From positions 1 to 5,523 of the IMG/VR virus record IMGVR_UViG_2703718795_000003: a stretch of 5,523 nt of DNA; one strand, given 5' to 3'. The position numbers and the translations under genes were made by a program. Origin of the DNA: a virus. Lineage: Duplodnaviria > Heunggongvirae > Uroviricota > Caudoviricetes. Below, one piece after another: positions 1 through 5,523 of this stretch. How positions within the stretch are numbered: the first letter of the stretch is position 1; each line of letters starts with the position of its first letter. The notes beneath the pieces are model-generated. The model searched no databases. It was not told the DNA's origin and was given only the letters and a program-made list of their open reading frames with translations.

Positions 1-201
1 CGTCACCAGCCCCAGCGTGTCCGTAAATTCATAACGGTATTTCACGTTAATGCCCTTCAGGTCATCGTTGCCGGGCATATCAGTGTGGGTCTGAAGATAC
101 CCGGCGCTTAGTGTGGACTGCTGCTCAGACGCCCATGCAGGCGCACCGGATACGGCCAGACAGATGGCTGCAGACAAAATGGCGGCATAAAGTTTACGCA
201 T
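1..201 (-). CDS. lom: Lom/Ail-family outer membrane protein, N-terminal fragment (67 codons; continues past the window start)
   Basis: Minus-strand ATG at 201..199 opens a frame with no stop through position 1: MRKLYAAILSAAICLAVSGAPAWASEQQSTLSAGYLQTHTDMPGNDDLKGINVKYRYEFTDTLGLVT. The N-terminus has a classic signal peptide (basic n-region, hydrophobic core, AWA-S cleavage motif) and matches the lambda Lom N-terminus as I recall it. GAGAGG Shine-Dalgarno lies 5 nt upstream. It sits directly downstream of J, as in lambda. Missing from the ORF track only because no stop lies inside the window. Confidence 0.85.
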   Translation of the reverse strand, partial: MRKLYAAILSAAICLAVSGAPAWASEQQSTLSAGYLQTHTDMPGNDDLKGINVKYRYEFTDTLGLVT

Positions 202-206
202 AATTA

Positions 207-212
207 CCTCTC
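207..212 (-). promoter_or_regulatory. Shine-Dalgarno (GAGAGG) for lom
   Basis: Plus-strand cctctc at 207..212 is GAGAGG on the minus strand, 5 nt upstream of the lom ATG. Confidence 0.6.
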
Positions 213-225
213 GCTTTTCTGCAAT

Positions 226-249
226 AAAAAAGGCGCCATTTCTGGCGCC
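226..249 (-). terminator. Putative rho-independent terminator after J
   Basis: Minus-strand RNA reads GGCGCC-AGAAAU-GGCGCC followed directly by UUUUUU: a perfect 6-bp all-GC stem (232..237 / 244..249), 6-nt loop, and U6 tract (plus 226..231). It begins about 20 nt after the J stop. On the plus strand no T-run follows the stem, so it is unidirectional. Confidence 0.55.
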
Positions 250-268
250 CGTATCTGGGTTATAAAAT

Positions 269-3200
269 TCAGCTAATCGTGATGCCTGCAGTGGCTTTCT
301 TCATCACAACAACCAGCAAATCGCTGATACTTGCTGTGGGATACCAGCCATTTACCCACCATGCTGATACAGAAAACTCCAGTGTCATTACGCCACTGCC
401 TGCAGGCATATCAATAACACCCGTGTATATCAGCGTATTATCCAGAGCCGTTCGGTTATAAATTTCAGCCCCGTTTTTCTTCACTATCAGGCGGCATGAC
501 GAATAAGTATCGCTATTCTCCCGTTCATGTCTGGCACCGCTGAAAGCCACCGCTGGAATAACAATTTGCCGGTCAAACGGCTGATCGTCATAAACCCTGA
601 CGGTAATTGTCCCTGATGGCCACCGCTCCGGTGCACGGGAGTCCCGGGGGAAAGCTTTGCCCACTGTTTTAACGAGATCGCCTTCAATCTGGTTCGCGGA
701 CAGTTTTCCCAGAACCCGACAGTTCTCGTTAATCGTGACGTTGTTGAGCGTCCCGGAGTTCGCATTCACGCTACCGCTGATATCGGCATTTTTCGCCGTC
801 AGCCGCCCGTCCGGTGTCAGGGAAAATGCCGGAGGATTACCGCCGCTGGTAATGGTCGGAGCCGTCAGGCGTTTCAGGAACACGTCGTTCATGAATATCT
901 GATCGCCCTGACCAACAAACATTGGTCTTGTGTTGCCATTAGACGGATCAATAAACGCGATACGGTTAGCGGCAACCAGGAACTGGCTCAGTTTGCCTTC
1001 CTCCGTATCCTCCATGCTGAGGCCAAGCCCCGCGACATAATGCCTGCCGTCTTCGGTCTGCTCAATTTTGACGCCCCACATGGCATTCCATTTATCGTTG
1101 GCGTCTTTCCACTCTTTCGAAAACTCCTCCAGTTTGCTGGCGTTATCCTCCGTCAGCTCGACTTTTTCCAGCAGCTCCTTGCCGAGATGGGATTCGGTTA
1201 TCTGGCCTTTGAAAAAATCCAGATAACCTTCCGCATCATCGCTCGCCCGACCGACGGCCTCCACAAATGCCGATTTACCAACGGTATTCACGCTGCGGAT
1301 GTAAAAGTAATAATCATAACCCGGCTTAATATTGCTACTGGCAGCTATCCAGTACAGCGCCGTGCCAAGATAGCGGGCGCTGGTTTCAACCTGCCTGATA
1401 TCCGCAATCCGCGTTTCCGAGAACCAGAACTCAAACTGCACCGTCGGATCATAAACCGCAAGATGCGGCGTGGCGGCTATCTGAAAATAGCCCGGTGTCA
1501 GCTCAATCTGTGACGGCGCTGCCGGTGCGGCAATCCGGAACGATACCGACGCCGGATCGCCCTGCTGTCCCCACGCATTTACCGCCCGGACTGTCAGCCT
1601 GTAGTTCCCCAGCGCCAGCTGCGTGAAGCGGTATGTGGTTTCCGTCGTCCGGGCCGTGCTGACCAGCCGCTCACTGCCGTCATCCGCTGCCACGGTCAGG
1701 CGAAGCAGGAAGCTCACACCCTTCACCACCTTCGGCGTGTCCCAGCGCGCCAGCACCTGATATTCCCCGCTGTCGGCGGTGACTTCTGCGGTCAGGTGCT
1801 GCACCGCTGGCGGCGTGACACCATTCACTGTGCCGCTCTGGTCACCGTCAAAGTGCGCCCCGTTATCCACGATGGCTTCTTTTTCAGGCACATGCTGCAC
1901 GGCGGTGATGGCATACGTGCCGTCATCGTTCTCACGGATACTCACGCAGCGGAACAGGCGCTGGCGCAGCGTCGGCAGCTTCAGCCCCCATACGCTGTAT
2001 TCAGCAACACCGTCAGGAACACGGCTCACTTTTACCTTCACGCCGTCGGTGACGGACTGAACCTCCACGCTGACCGGATTGCCACTTCCGTCAACCAGGC
2101 TTATCAGCGTGGTACCGGAGGATGGCAGCGTGATTTCACGGTCGAGCGTCAGCGTCCGGGTCTGGCTGTTCACCGCCAGCACACGACCACCGGTGCTGAT
2201 CCCCGCATAGTCATCATCACAGATTTCAATGACATCGCCCGGTACATGGCGAAGCCCTTCTGCGCCCACGCTGAAGTCCACGGTCTGCGTTTCCAGCAGT
2301 TCCGTTTTAATCAGCCACAGCCCGGCACGGTGTGCCTGCCCCCGACTGGTACAGCCAAAGGCATCCATCTTCGTGACGTTACGACCGTAACGGGCAATGG
2401 CCTGCGTGTCCTCCACAAGCTCTGTTGCCGTCTCCCAGCCGTTGTCCGGGTCAGTCCAGTTCACCTCAACGGCATTATGGCGGTCTTTCAGGGCGCTGAA
2501 GCTGTAGCGGAACGGCGCGCCATCATCCGGCATCACCACATTACTGCGGTTATAGGTCCACACCTTATCCGACGGCCGGTCCTGCACGAACGTCAGCGTC
2601 TGCCCGTTCCATACCGGCATACAGCGCATCGCCGAGCAGAAATCACTGAGAACATCCCACGCCTTACGCTGTGTGGTCAGGTAGGCATTACAGGTGATGC
2701 GCGGCTCCGTGCCACCAAAGCCATCCGGCACCGACTGGTCGCAATTCTGGCCGATGACATACAGCGCCCATTTGTCCACATCCGCCGCACCGAGACGCTT
2801 CCCCATGCCGTAGCGCGGATGGGTCAGCATATCCCACAGACACCAGGCCATGTTGTTGCTGTATGCCGGTTTAAACGTTCCGTCCCAGATACCGCTGTAT
2901 TGCCGCGTCTGCGGGTTATAGTTCGACGGCACCTGCAGAATGCGCCCGCGCAGATGATAATTACGGCTCACCTGCTGGCTGCCGAACTGCTCCGAATCCA
3001 CCTGCACGCCGACCAGTGCCGTGTTCGGGTAGCACTGTTTCACATCGATGATTTCGGTGTATGACGACCAGAGCGTTTTGTTCTGCAGCTGGTCTGTGGT
3101 GCTGTCCGGCGTCATCCTGCGCATCCGGATATTAAACGGGCGCGGCGGCAGGTTATCCACCACCACCGAGGCCAGATACTGCGACGTGGTTTTGCCCTTA

Positions 3201-3664
3201 ATGGTGATGTCTTTTTCCGTCACCCAGCCACCGTTACGCTGTATCTGAACCAGCAGGCGGACTTCCGACGGATTCCTGTCACCCTTTGAGGTGGTTTCCA
3301 CCAGTGCCTGCACACCGAAGGTAAAGCGCAGACGGTCGATGTTTGCCGACGTGATGGTCCGGGTGATAGGCGTGTCGTATTTCACTTCCGTACCCAGCAC
3401 CGTCTCGGATCCGGAGGATTCAAATCCCTCCGGCGGTGTCTGTTCCTGCTCACCTGCCCGGAACACCACCGTGACACCAGAGATGTTGGTATTCCCCTCA
3501 CTGTCCAGCACCGGCGTACTGTTCAGCAGCACGCTTTTTAACCCATCCACCGGACCTTCAATCGGCCCTTCGCTGATGGCATCGATCACACTCAGCAACT
3601 GCGTGGACTTCAGGTTGTCCTTCGCTTCGCGCGGGGTATGCCCCTTACTGCTGCCTTTACCCAT
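269..3664 (-). CDS. J: Tail tip / central tail fibre host-specificity protein J (1131 aa)
   Basis: Uninterrupted 3396-nt ORF with ATG at 3664 and GGAG 8 nt upstream. The N-terminal roughly 980 residues ([38 protein letters not shown]...) match lambda gpJ, recalled as 1132 aa, nearly residue for residue. A fibronectin-III-like segment lies mid-protein. The C-terminal region is related but appears to diverge. Confidence 0.95.
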
Positions 3665-3672
3665 TCGTCATG

Positions 3673-3676
3673 CTCC
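3673..3676 (-). promoter_or_regulatory. Shine-Dalgarno (GGAG) for J
   Basis: Minus-strand sequence upstream of the J start is GTTTATGGAGCATGACGA-ATG, placing GGAG 8 nt before the ATG. Confidence 0.6.
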
Positions 3677-3686
3677 ATAAACGACA

Positions 3687-3706
3687 AAACCGCCAGCAGG
3701 CGGTTT
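3687..3706 (-). promoter_or_regulatory. Perfect 8-bp hairpin in the I-J intergenic region (possible attenuator or RNA-processing/stability element)
   Basis: Plus aaaccgcc-agca-ggcggttt at 3687..3706 is a perfect inverted repeat (8-bp stem, 4-nt loop). On the minus-strand transcript it is followed by UGUCGUUUAU and then the J ribosome-binding site. Confidence 0.35.
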
Positions 3707-3724
3707 CACATAAAACATTTTGCA

Positions 3725-4372
3725 TCAGCGACCAATCACCACAACCTGACCACCGTCACCTTCGTCTGCCGTGCTGATCTCCTGAGAAACCACACGTGAT
3801 CCCACGCGCATTTCACCGTACAGAACGGGCAGAACATTGCCCTGGGCAACCATGTTATCCAGTGAGGAGAAATAGGTGTTTTGTTTGCCGTTATCCGTTG
3901 TCTGTGTTCGGGGAGTTCTGGCTTTCGGTGCCAGCATCTGCGCCACACCGCCAAGGATCATACTGGCCCCCGCAGCATACATGCCCGATAAAGCCGCAGC
4001 TCCCAGCCAGCCTGCAGGGTTCCACCACGCCACCGCAATCAGCGCCGCACCCAGCACCGCCTGAAACACACCGCCACTTTTGGCACCCGCCAGGCGCGGT
4101 ACGATGTGGATCACGACACCATTTTCCAGCGGCTCATTAAGACGGGCTGATAATTCGGTTTCACCTGCATCACGCCCGGCAATGCGCACCTGATACCAGC
4201 CGTCATTCAGTTTCTGACGAAACGCCGGGAGCTGTGTGGCCAGCGCCCGGATGGCTTCGGCCCCCGTTTTCACACGAAGGTCGATGCGGCGGCCAAATCG
4301 TTGCAAATCCCCGTAAAGGCAGATGCGTGCCATGCCCGGTGACGCCAGAGGGAGTGTGTGCGTCGCTGCCAT
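3725..4372 (-). CDS. I: Tail assembly protein I (215 aa): N-terminal ubiquitin-like domain followed by a Gly/Ala-rich hydrophobic segment
   Basis: ORF with ATG at 4372. MAATHTLPLASPGMARICLYGDLQRFGRRIDLRVKTGAEAIRALATQLPAFRQKL... and the C-terminus ...NVLPVLYGEMRVGSRVVSQEISTADEGDGGQVVVIGR match lambda gpI as I recall it (223 aa). Its position between K and J and the 60-nt gap to J equal those in lambda. Confidence 0.9.
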   Translation of the reverse strand: MAATHTLPLASPGMARICLYGDLQRFGRRIDLRVKTGAEAIRALATQLPAFRQKLNDGWYQVRIAGRDAGETELSARLNEPLENGVVIHIVPRLAGAKSGGVFQAVLGAALIAVAWWNPAGWLGAAALSGMYAAGASMILGGVAQMLAPKARTPRTQTTDNGKQNTYFSSLDNMVAQGNVLPVLYGEMRVGSRVVSQEISTADEGDGGQVVVIGR

Positions 4373-5013
4373 TTGTCGGTATACCTCTCTCGTTTGCTCA
4401 GTTGTTCAGGAATATGGTGCAGCAGCTCGCCGTCACCACAGTAAATGGCGGCATGATTCGGCACCGATGAACCAAAACAGCACAGCAGCACATCGCCCGG
4501 CTGCGCCGCTGACAACGGCACCTGATACAGCCCCGTTGCCTCCAGATTATCCAGATAGAGATTCTGACCGTGACGCCACCAGTCATCCCCGCGATGAAAA
4601 TCCGGCATCTCAATCCCCGCCAGATGATAAGCATCCCGGAACAGCGTGTAACAGTCCGTCACCCCGTGCTCAAAGCGCCGCCCGGTAAGATGCGGCACAC
4701 AGCGGAATTTATGAATCTCACCCCGGCAGACCAGCCACCAGGGCAAATCGCTCTGCACCTGCAGCCGCCTGTCAGCCTCACTCAGCCAGGGCAGATCACC
4801 GGGGTGGCTGTGGACCAGCGCCACAATCTCACCCTGCATCTCTGCCCGCAGCCAGTCCTCCGGCGACATCCGGAAATACGCCTCCGGCTCACCGGAGATA
4901 TTCACGCAGGGAAAATATCTTTCCCCTTCCGGCGTTCTCACCACGAAGCCGCACGACTCCGCTGGCGCACATCGCCGGGCGTGCGCCAGAATCTCTGATT
5001 CTGTCTCTGTCAT
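4270..5013 (-). CDS. K: Tail assembly protein K (247 aa from the ATG at 5013): JAB/MPN (JAMM) metallopeptidase domain plus NlpC/P60 cysteine peptidase domain
   Basis: ORF matches lambda gpK. The JAMM motif HSHPGDLPWLSEAD (H68-x-H70-x7-S78-x2-D81) is encoded at 4771..4812. NlpC/P60-like catalytic residues are Cys121 (GVTDCYTLF), His187 and His199. The start is ambiguous: the ATG at 5013 lies 4 nt after the L stop with no obvious SD, the track's 261-aa form would start at a TTG at 5055 inside L, and an internal ATG at 4869..4867 has a GGAGG 11 nt upstream and gives a 199-aa product. The last 33 codons overlap the I start out of frame. Confidence 0.85.
   Translation of the reverse strand: MTETESEILAHARRCAPAESCGFVVRTPEGERYFPCVNISGEPEAYFRMSPEDWLRAEMQGEIVALVHSHPGDLPWLSEADRRLQVQSDLPWWLVCRGEIHKFRCVPHLTGRRFEHGVTDCYTLFRDAYHLAGIEMPDFHRGDDWWRHGQNLYLDNLEATGLYQVPLSAAQPGDVLLCCFGSSVPNHAAIYCGDGELLHHIPEQLSKRERYTDKWQRRTHSLWRHRAWHASAFTGICNDLAAASTFV
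4384..4390 (-). promoter_or_regulatory. Possible Shine-Dalgarno (AGAGAGG) for I, embedded in the K coding sequence
   Basis: Minus-strand AGAGAGG-TATACCGACAA-ATG. The 11-nt spacer is longer than optimal, so this is weak. Confidence 0.35.
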
Positions 5014-5017
5014 GGGA

Positions 5018-5523
5018 TTACTGCGAAAGTTTGTTAATGGAAAGGAAGCCGCCAAAGTTGCCGACGTTATTGCGAAACTTACAGCCGCTCAGGCATTTGC
5101 TGCATTTATCCTTCGTGATATCGGACGTCGGCTGGTCATATTCATCCGCGACAGCCGGACCGTGATAACCGCACTCATCACCGCGATAGGTCCAGGTGCA
5201 GGTGTTGGCCAGCATGATACGTCCCGGAAAAACAGCGCCATCCGTTTCCGTCGGTGTGGACAACACAAAGGAGGCGCTGACCGTACTCAGTTCGCTGCAC
5301 TGCTCGATGCGCCAGCGGCTGATCACCTCCTGCTCCGGACCGGCATCGCGGTTTCCGTGGACGAAGTGCACCGCATACAGTAAACGGGCGTAAACCTTAC
5401 GCCTGACCACCGTTCCGCCGACCAGACTCTGCAGATCTTCCACCATCCAGGTGACCATGCCGTACAGGTTAGAGACTGCCAGCGTGGGGCGCGTACTGGT
5501 GCCGTTGCCATTAAGTTCAAAAC
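5018..5523 (-). CDS. L: Tail tip assembly protein L, C-terminal portion (5' end lies beyond the window)
   Basis: The minus-strand frame is open from the window edge to the TAA at 5018..5020. The translation ...FELNGNGTSTRPTLAVSNLYGMVTWMVEDLQSLVGGTVVRRKVYARLLYAVHFVHGNRDAGPEQEVISRWRIEQCSELSTVSASFVLSTPTETDGAVFPGRIMLANTCTWTYRGDECGYHGPAVADEYDQPTSDITKDKCSKCLSGCKFRNNVGNFGGFLSINKLSQ matches the C-terminal two-thirds of lambda gpL. The track's 146-aa ORF (5018..5458) is this reading frame cut at an internal Met. Confidence 0.9.
   Translation of the reverse strand, partial: FELNGNGTSTRPTLAVSNLYGMVTWMVEDLQSLVGGTVVRRKVYARLLYAVHFVHGNRDAGPEQEVISRWRIEQCSELSTVSASFVLSTPTETDGAVFPGRIMLANTCTWTYRGDECGYHGPAVADEYDQPTSDITKDKCSKCLSGCKFRNNVGNFGGFLSINKLSQ

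Follow-up and report, generated by a model that had tools for sequence, protein, structure and literature searches.

A lambda-type tail tip protein J with a VT1-Sakai-class receptor-binding tip in a lambdoid prophage

The tail-tip gene cluster and the domains of J

The stretch of DNA analysed here (the window; 5,523 nucleotides, positions 1 to 5,523 of the IMG/VR record IMGVR_UViG_2703718795_000003) is the tail-tip gene cluster L-K-I-J-lom of a lambdoid prophage. It contains the following features.

5018..5523, minus strand: 3′ part of gene L (minor tail protein L), truncated by the window end, after the annotation of NZ_CP039404
4270..5013, minus strand: gene K (tail tip assembly protein with JAB/MPN and NlpC/P60 domains); Pfam Prok-JAB and NLPC_P60
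3725..4273, minus strand: gene I (tail assembly protein); Pfam Lambda_tail_I, E 4.4e-24; PGAP coordinates in NZ_CP039404
269..3664, minus strand: J (tail tip attachment protein, or central tail fiber), an intact ORF of 1131 aa with its stop codon at 269-271
272..664, minus strand: Ig-like receptor-binding domain (RBD) of J, aa 1001-1131; PF12421 Ig_GpJ_C, E 6.6e-37, 127 bits against a cut-off of 26.2
221..250, minus strand: terminator-like hairpin and T-run between J and lom, GGGCGCCAGAAATGGCGCCT then TTTTTATTGC; 8 pairs, 6 of them G-C
1..201, minus strand: 5′ part of lom (Ail/Lom outer-membrane protein), truncated by the window end; its translation starts MRKLYAAILSAAICLAVSGAPAWA

The context of a lambdoid tail module is evident from the Pfam matches of I and K, the prophage annotation and the N-terminus of lom. 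A prophage of E. coli 377323_2f matches the entire window at 99.7% identity; in it, gpJ is annotated as such and the counterpart of lom as an Ail/Lom family protein. The counterpart of gene K in NZ_CP039404 is annotated as a C40 family peptidase, and the BLAST matches of the gene L region are named tail tip assembly protein L. Phage 21 and mEp460 have annotated terminators at the place equivalent to that of the hairpin between J and lom. For gene I, there is also a longer ORF, from the ATG at 4372.

The six Pfam domains of J (Phage-tail_3, FNIII-A_GpJ, Ig_J, Ig_J_second, Phage_Tail_Tip and Ig_GpJ_C), all above their cut-offs, occur in the lambda order and make up the full lambda-type TipJ architecture of hub, FNIII-A, two Ig/FNIII domains, tail-tip fiber and RBD; the Ig_GpJ_C match of the tip exceeds the gathering threshold of the Pfam profile. 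As the initial annotation of this DNA had suggested, we modelled the tip and compared it with solved gpJ structures. The top Foldseek matches of the AlphaFold2 model (pLDDT 82.7) were A8 gpJ (9wca/9wcb; TM 0.74-0.75) and lambda gpJ (8xck/8xcj; TM 0.76), showing that its Ig-like β-sandwich superposes on the solved gpJ tips (TM 0.74-0.76). The model is that of a monomer, and what we say below of loop orientation and of a porin interface is inferred rather than mapped in three dimensions.

The junction between the lambda-type body and the tip

We aligned J globally with the reference gpJ of lambda (NC_001416, 15505-18903). As shown by this alignment, 949 of 984 residues (96.4%) are identical over residues 1-984, as against 60 of 148 alignment columns (40.5%) over residues 985-1131. 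These values agree with the initial annotation, which had described about 980 N-terminal residues matching lambda gpJ followed by 130-150 heavily substituted ones, and the C-terminal identity lies well below the 95% or more at which the tip would simply have been that of lambda. The near-identity to lambda gpJ aa 985-1132, contact loops included, that marks the LamB-binding lambda allele is thus absent. In steps of 50 residues, the identity is 96-100% up to residue 750, 90-96% in 751-950, 74% in 951-1000 and 28-46% beyond. At the nucleotide level, it is 85-100% upstream and 29-62% (~50%) from J nt ~2932 (aa ~978, window ~733). Judged from the alignment, a drop from ~96% to ~40% of this abruptness is far beyond chance. 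The initial annotation had placed the variant region at 272-712, which begins at residue 985; the break that it noticed is real, but the motif quoted as its start begins at residue 975 (window 740-742).

272..733, minus strand: part of J diverged from lambda (aa ~978-1131), comprising the final turns of the straight central fiber and the receptor-binding domain
272..829, minus strand: VT1-Sakai-like exchanged tract (aa ~946-1131), delimited by 48-nt windows from J nt 2836 on

The tip of lambda gpJ, which binds LamB (8xcj/8xck), has the Pfam domain and the Ig-like fold in common with the window tip (TM 0.76), and the anchor motifs reported earlier as conserved, FPR (1005), WPSGT (1015), PFDRQIV (1029) and MPAG (1086), indeed stand at equal residue numbers in both proteins. 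The loops of the two tips, in contrast, are not alignable residue by residue, and the tips differ in length by 1 residue.

We then compared J with that of VT1-Sakai (Sp15), a prophage of E. coli O157:H7. From J nt 2836 on, the two are 95-100% identical in nucleotide sequence, except for internal patches of 72-89%, whereas VT1-Sakai is only 25-92% identical to J in the 48-nt windows upstream of the exchanged tract, and the N-terminal two-thirds of its J are just 59-85% identical to that of the window. The drop in identity to lambda coincides with the rise in identity to VT1-Sakai, so that a swap of the C-terminal module is directly shown by the nucleotide mosaic. On this comparison, the tip of J is a separate exchangeable module and not a product of drift from lambda, and J is a natural mosaic. 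A drifted lambda tip was considered and rejected, the change in identity being a step that is paired with near-identity to another phage (VT1-Sakai). The same junction between lambda body and tip occurs in a complete genome (99.7% identity) and in the genome of phage PhiR47_1 (95%), which makes a chimeric assembly artefact unlikely.

Tip classes, prevalence and variable spots

Alignment of the tip with those of other phages, another check proposed at the outset, gave VT1-Sakai as the nearest class. Over the last ~147 aa, the identity is 99% to PhiR47_1, 93% to VT1-Sakai, 59-62% to A8 and phi21, 41% to lambda and 40% to 434/mEp460, and tblastn recovered the same discrete tip classes. The loop-bearing core of the window tip class matched 3321 of 5426 complete E. 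coli genomes (about 60%); by these matches, it is the commonest class of J tip among E. coli prophages, the LamB-type tip of lambda being rarer.

The class of A8 and phage 21, whose tips are 82% identical to each other, is represented among solved structures by A8, an OmpC user and the best PDB sequence match of the window tip (E 3e-82; fold TM 0.75). Both this class and the window tip have a C-terminal strand of 11 residues in common. The RBD identity of 59-62%, however, falls short of the ~80% or more expected of a member, and two loops differ in length, with 4 residues deleted and 5 inserted in A8 relative to the window tip. Phage 434 and mEp460 likewise have a tip of the same domain family, and in both their class and that of the window the tip has been swapped naturally onto a J body like that of lambda; the 434 tip is the classical h434 host-range determinant. 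At 40% identity, as against the ~90% or more of RBD identity expected within that class, and with a 434-class J of 1137 aa, the window tip does not belong there.

The nearest phage record is that of PhiR47_1 (PV340566), whose RBD is 98.2% identical in both nucleotides and amino acids; the last 170 aa differ at 3 positions. It has the same gene order and is 95% identical to the whole window, the J body differing in ~5% of its nucleotides. The record is of a complete phage genome with ECOR13 as the host, and PhiR47.1 is among the temperate phages that have been used in infection assays. Hosts listed in the records of phages with a tip of the window class are ECOR13, E. coli C and O55/O157 strains; K-12 MG1655 is absent from them. 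A literature search for the outer-membrane receptor of the PhiR phages gave just the SNIPE preprint, which describes dependence on ManYZ and names no outer-membrane receptor.

With VT1-Sakai, the window tip is 93% identical over the last 147 aa without gaps, which is above the 90% RBD identity that we took as the lower limit for the VT1-Sakai/1A2 class. Their RBDs differ by 11 substitutions, which are the same ones relative to 1A2, an engineered gpJ described below: R1045K, R1048K, N1050H, S1051T, T1053I, K1062R, T1081S, S1090H, V1092H, W1103L and G1106N. Many of these are conservative (R/K, S/T). They are concentrated in the spots that vary within the class, mostly predicted loops, as determined per column from 30 unique class members, with the loops taken from the DSSP string of the model.

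623..646, minus strand: variable spot 1, DSRAPERW (aa ~1007-1014), in a predicted loop between the strands aa 999-1003 and 1018-1026
506..550, minus strand: variable spot 2 (aa 1039-1053), with 5 of the 11 substitutions (R1045K, R1048K, N1050H, S1051T, T1053I)
377..427, minus strand: variable spot 3 (aa 1080-1096), with T1081S, S1090H and V1092H relative to VT1-Sakai; nucleotide identity 77%
344..364, minus strand: variable spot 4, AWWVNGW (aa 1101-1107), with W1103L and G1106N relative to VT1-Sakai

The loop of spot 1 may lie at the receptor-facing end. Nucleotide identity to VT1-Sakai is at its lowest in spot 2 (72%). Thus, the residues in the variable loop patches are not equal to those of VT1-Sakai and 1A2, 5 of the 11 substitutions falling at aa 1045-1053 and the nucleotide identity of the patches being 72-77%. 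The central piece, aa 1016-1107, has a dS of 0.59 relative to VT1-Sakai, as against 0.03-0.06 in the flanks, which makes the window tip an old, distinct sub-allele of the VT1-Sakai class. The dN/dS of the tip relative to VT1-Sakai was 0.14-0.16 (Nei-Gojobori), a ratio that shows purifying selection on the coding sequence of the tip and carries no overall signal of positive selection.

The probable receptor of the tip

The nearest relative with a tested receptor is gpJ 1A2 (Brödel et al., Nature 2024, PMC11338833), an engineered chimera that carries the VT1-Sakai tip from a fusion point at lambda aa 964. Its design is the same as that of the window J, a lambda-type body with a tip of this class, the natural junction lying at aa ~946-978 as against the engineered 964. 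The 1A2 DNA, taken from the supplement of PMC11338833, is 97% identical to VT1-Sakai and matches the window at 160 of 176 residues (91%); these identities, obtained by a frameshift-tolerant protein-to-DNA alignment, are approximate, because the sequence comes from a machine-read PDF with 9 frameshift columns. The C-terminal 19 residues of 1A2 and VT1-Sakai are identical to those of the window tip. Plain tblastn of J tips against the DNA of 1A2 and A8 was discarded, its identities of 39-59% being misleading on account of the OCR frameshifts.

A strain deleted for lamB and ompC receives DNA from 1A2 if it is supplied with OmpC of EDL933, but not if it is supplied with K-12 OmpC, and at an MOI of 50 the chimera reached only 5% of wild-type MG1655, compared with 98% for wild-type lambda (PMC11338833). 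1A2 and A8 accept different members of a set of 23 OmpC variants (PMC11338833). The entry PDB 9wcb ('A8 gpJ 713 with OmpC G17 from EDL933') contains three OmpC chains. By analogy with 1A2, OmpC of a non-K-12 type is the most likely receptor of the window tip; for 1A2 itself, OmpC dependence and failure on K-12 OmpC were measured, and K-12 LamB does not serve it as a receptor. The nucleotide mosaic and the OmpC use of 1A2 together bear out the proposal of the initial annotation that J has a swapped receptor-binding region consistent with an altered receptor. Literature searches for a paper on PDB 9wca/9wcb or on J and OmpC in Stx prophages returned nothing relevant, and a 2026 preprint on receptor prediction covers gpJ of Drexlerviridae only, with lambda-type tips excluded.

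We consider a mosaic J with a VT1-Sakai-class tip, OmpC as the likely receptor and a porin-triggered mechanism to be probably the best overall explanation. A lambda-type body, comprising the hub, the FNIII/Ig domains, the helical shaft and most of the straight fiber, extends from aa 1 to ~945-977, and the conserved fiber end is where homologous recombination would have joined it to a widespread receptor-binding module of the VT1-Sakai class. By analogy with 8xcj and 9wcb, the tip would be a trimer of Ig-like β-sandwich domains, with distal loops that enter a trimeric porin; as in the lambda-LamB and A8-OmpC complexes, receptor binding may then spread the three domains and so trigger opening of the tail. 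The tip loops differ from those of lambda, and hence the receptor should differ. OmpC as the receptor of this sub-allele, like the triggering mechanism, is what we infer from these relatives.

Receptor choice is labile within the J tip family: phage 21 natively uses LamB, and the single change I1025T adds OmpC. The window tip could bind LamB, alone or with OmpC, as wild-type phage 21 does, its difference from lambda being another way to bind the same maltoporin. The phage 21 tip, native to LamB and one mutation away from OmpC, is of the next-nearest natural class (62%), and tips only 45% identical to that of lambda can still bind LamB. We regard LamB binding as unlikely nonetheless, since the closer relative 1A2 (91-93%) reaches only about 5% of LamB-carrying wild-type K-12 cells at MOI 50, where lambda reaches 98%, and is functional in cells that lack lamB if they are given EDL933 OmpC. 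It is somewhat easier to imagine, although still improbable, that the differing loop residues direct the sub-allele to another trimeric porin (OmpF, PhoE, OmpN or similar) or to a set of OmpC variants clearly unlike that of 1A2. The clustering of the 11 substitutions in the variable loop patches, the differences that already exist between 1A2 and A8 among the 23 OmpC variants, and the ability of lambda and phi21 to reach OmpF by a few J mutations all speak in its favour. Nothing positive points to another porin, however, the overall dN/dS of 0.14 is not what a recent shift in specificity would leave behind, and many of the substitutions are the conservative ones noted above.

Many E. coli lambdoid prophages are defective, and J of VT1-Sakai itself is annotated as split by mutation, so J could be a decaying remnant whose tip has no current function. 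This we hold to be very improbable: the window J is a full-length ORF of 1131 aa, the neighbouring genes L, K, I and lom are intact and a terminator lies downstream, its dN/dS is 0.09-0.16, and PhiR47_1, whose tip is almost identical, has a record as a complete phage genome that names its host and was used in infection assays.

The tip swap is thus real, ordinary and already known. Exchange of the C-terminal module of J is a textbook host-range mechanism of lambdoid phages. As a discovery, the finding holds little that is new, since most sequenced E. coli carry the module and one of its close relatives has already served to retarget lambda particles to OmpC. For annotation, the tip can be labelled as of the VT1-Sakai/1A2 class, with OmpC as the probable receptor, and engineered chimeras are fused at a point that fits the natural junction (aa ~946-978). 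Which OmpC variants are recognised may be determined by the loop patches in which the sub-alleles vary. It is conceivable, though we put it forward tentatively, that this sub-allele recognises a materially different set of receptors, such as another trimeric porin or OmpC variants closed to 1A2, for example those of K-12 type. In that case, the many sub-alleles of one very common class would amount to a natural panel of specificities for porin variants.

Gene context and the junction in J

Every gene in the window lies on the minus strand, and together they make up the distal end of a tail module of lambdoid type.

5018-5523, minus strand: L, 3′ part
4270-5013, minus strand: K, with JAB and NlpC/P60 domains
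3725-4273, minus strand: I
269-3664, minus strand: J, 1131 aa
250-221, minus strand: terminator (hairpin and T-run)
201-1, minus strand: lom, 5′ part

The entire window is matched at 99.7% identity by a chromosomal prophage of E. coli 377323_2f, which was isolated from human faeces, and 4681 of 5426 complete E. coli genomes carry the region in some version. The closest phage record is PhiR47_1, with 95% identity across the full window. Starting at an ATG at 4372, the I frame runs open for 215 codons (window 3725-4372) and overlaps K by ~100 nt, as the annotation of lambda I likewise does; the PGAP product in the near-identical prophage has 182 aa and starts at 4273, and the true start may be either. 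The strong intrinsic-terminator-like hairpin at 221-250, on the coding strand between J and lom, points to a lom transcript distinct from that of the late tail operon, in line with the annotations of phage 21 and mEp460.

We aligned the window J globally to lambda gpJ. Residues 1-984 were identical at 949 of 984 positions (96.4%), as against 60 of 148 alignment columns (40.5%) for residues 985-1131, so that the initial annotation was correct in describing a lambda-like body with a variant C-terminal region. The motifs it named (FPR, WPSGT, PFDRQIV and MPAG) occur in the two proteins with identical residue numbering. The motif it quoted for the beginning of the variant region, NVTINENC, has its first residue at position 975 (window 740-742) and so lies ten residues ahead of the stated range, window 272-712. 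In nucleotides, the break from lambda comes after J nt 2931, and from nt 2932 on (aa ~978, window ~733) identity drops from 85-100% to 29-62%.

In 48-nt windows, the stretch that starts at J nt 2836 (aa ~946, window ~829) and runs through the stop codon was 95-100% identical to the J of the O157:H7 prophage VT1-Sakai, bar a few internal patches, whereas the N-terminal two-thirds of VT1-Sakai J had only 59-85% identity to the window. A lambda tip with accumulated substitutions was rejected on account of this near-identity. Since the match is limited to the tip and the bodies diverge, the tip is an exchangeable module carried on two different J bodies, a classical lambdoid mosaic. In the straight fiber, window 926-973 (J aa 898-913) had 71-79% nucleotide identity to all five reference phages, PhiR47_1 included, between neighbours 88-98% identical to PhiR47_1, and resembles a further short tract acquired by recombination.

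Class, fold and abundance of the tip

When the C-terminal 169 aa were searched by tblastn in 50,697 phage records, J tips fell into discrete classes. Fifty-seven records matched the query at ≥90% identity, including PhiR47_1 (98.2%), Stx1a/Stx2a phages, PPompW phages and JLK-2012, and a nucleotide search placed VT1-Sakai and 2G7b in the same class.

Identity of J tips to the window tip (last ~147 aa)
PhiR47_1: 99%
VT1-Sakai: 93%
Phage 21: 62%
A8 (engineered gpJ chimera): 59%
Lambda: 41%
434 / mEp460: 40%

Residues 1001-1131 matched Pfam PF12421 (Ig_GpJ_C, 'C-terminal receptor binding domain'; E 6.6e-37). An AlphaFold2 model of the tip, built with 43 homologues, was an all-beta sandwich (mean pLDDT 82.7), and its four best Foldseek matches in the PDB, at TM 0.74-0.76, were 9wca ('closed state of A8 gpJ 713'), 9wcb ('open state of A8 gpJ 713 ... 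with OmpC G17 from E. coli EDL933'; three OmpC chains), 8xck (lambda gpJ, closed state) and 8xcj (lambda gpJ with LamB). By sequence, A8 gpJ ranked first in the PDB (E 3e-82) and lambda gpJ second (E 3e-60). A literature search found no paper describing 9wca or 9wcb. The lambda tip is a trimer of Ig-like domains, each of which inserts four distal loops into the LamB trimer; LamB binding splays the three domains and initiates the rearrangement that opens the tail (PMC11101478). The window tip, modelled as a monomer, would act similarly, by trimerization, porin insertion, domain spreading and tail opening.

The 492-nt tip was found by megablast in 3668 of the 5426 genomes, with 197 matching records at ≥99% identity and 2545 at 90-95%. 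The 276-nt loop-bearing core occurred in 3321 complete genomes, usually in several prophages each, with 354 matching records at ≥95% identity to the window sub-allele. The nearest clusters in the protein database represent thousands of members, labelled 'host specificity protein J', 'DUF1983' or 'DUF3672'. Most J tips of E. coli prophages are of this type, and it is lambda's LamB-type tip that is unusual.

Receptor of the window tip

Brödel et al. (Nature 2024; PMC11338833) took the C-terminal portions of J proteins from natural prophages and joined them to residue 964 of lambda J; the resulting chimeras A8 and 1A2 use OmpC. Because their supplementary DNA is recoded and was machine-read with errors, we aligned the tips to it by a frameshift-tolerant dynamic programme. 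On this reading, 1A2 was 97% identical to the VT1-Sakai tip, the leftover mismatches adjoining OCR frameshifts, and 91% identical to the window tip (160/176 residues); A8 was 82% identical to phage 21, whose class it belongs to, and 68% to the window tip. 1A2 delivered DNA efficiently into a lamB ompC double deletion supplied with EDL933 OmpC and not into one supplied with K-12 OmpC; at an MOI of 50 it reached only ~5% of wild-type MG1655, as against 98% for wild-type lambda; and A8, 1A2 or both accepted 21 of 23 OmpC variants (PMC11338833). The class of the window tip therefore includes an experimentally established OmpC-dependent, LamB-independent member. VT1-Sakai J (L005, its J sequence, 520-3992) carries an annotation as a pair of overlapping CDS 'truncated by a mutation', so in the Sakai strain the 1A2-type tip may come naturally from a defective gene; J in the window, by contrast, is intact.

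Phage records with the window-type tip give ECOR13, E. coli C and O55/O157 strains as hosts; K-12 MG1655, which seven records of the wider tblastn set name as host, was absent among them. This is circumstantially in agreement with 1A2-like OmpC use. Taken together, we consider OmpC the probable receptor, with roughly two-thirds of our confidence.

The remainder is shared by LamB, used by itself or along with OmpC, and by another porin or a shifted spectrum of OmpC variants. The OmpC assignment is less than certain because the window tip is a distinct sub-allele and receptor choice is labile in the J tip family. Its receptor-binding domain differs from that of VT1-Sakai/1A2 at 11 positions (R1045K, R1048K, N1050H, S1051T, T1053I, K1062R, T1081S, S1090H, V1092H, W1103L and G1106N), largely within the four spots where 30 unique members of the class vary most (aa ~1007-1014, 1042-1053, 1090-1094 and 1101-1107), most of which are predicted loops in the model. 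Against VT1-Sakai, dS was 0.59 in aa 1016-1107 (window 343-618) and 0.03-0.06 in the flanking tip, which makes the tip itself a second, nested mosaic, its loop-bearing core being an old sub-allele lineage recombined into an otherwise near-identical module. The tip dN/dS of 0.14-0.16 indicates purifying selection overall. Phage 21 natively uses LamB; one substitution where the fiber meets the RBD, I1025T, adds OmpC, and the phage afterwards gains OmpF as well (PMC11336670). A8 binds OmpC while wild-type phage 21 reportedly uses LamB, and this class thus has two different native receptors.

Host range and significance

Downstream of lom, the 377323_2f prophage (L007, its sequence, 2057-5542) carries a side-tail-fiber gene pair, one gene for an N-terminal domain protein and the other for a small protein with the C-terminal domain, together with a tail fiber assembly pseudogene that is truncated. 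These side fibers, outside the window, would supply a second host-range determinant.

The swapped receptor-binding C-terminus proposed initially is real, and its interpretation is supported by a VT1-Sakai-class tip on a lambda-type body. Such a natural module swap, of a very common class, is an ordinary and already known feature of J; a close relative of this tip has already been characterised and engineered.
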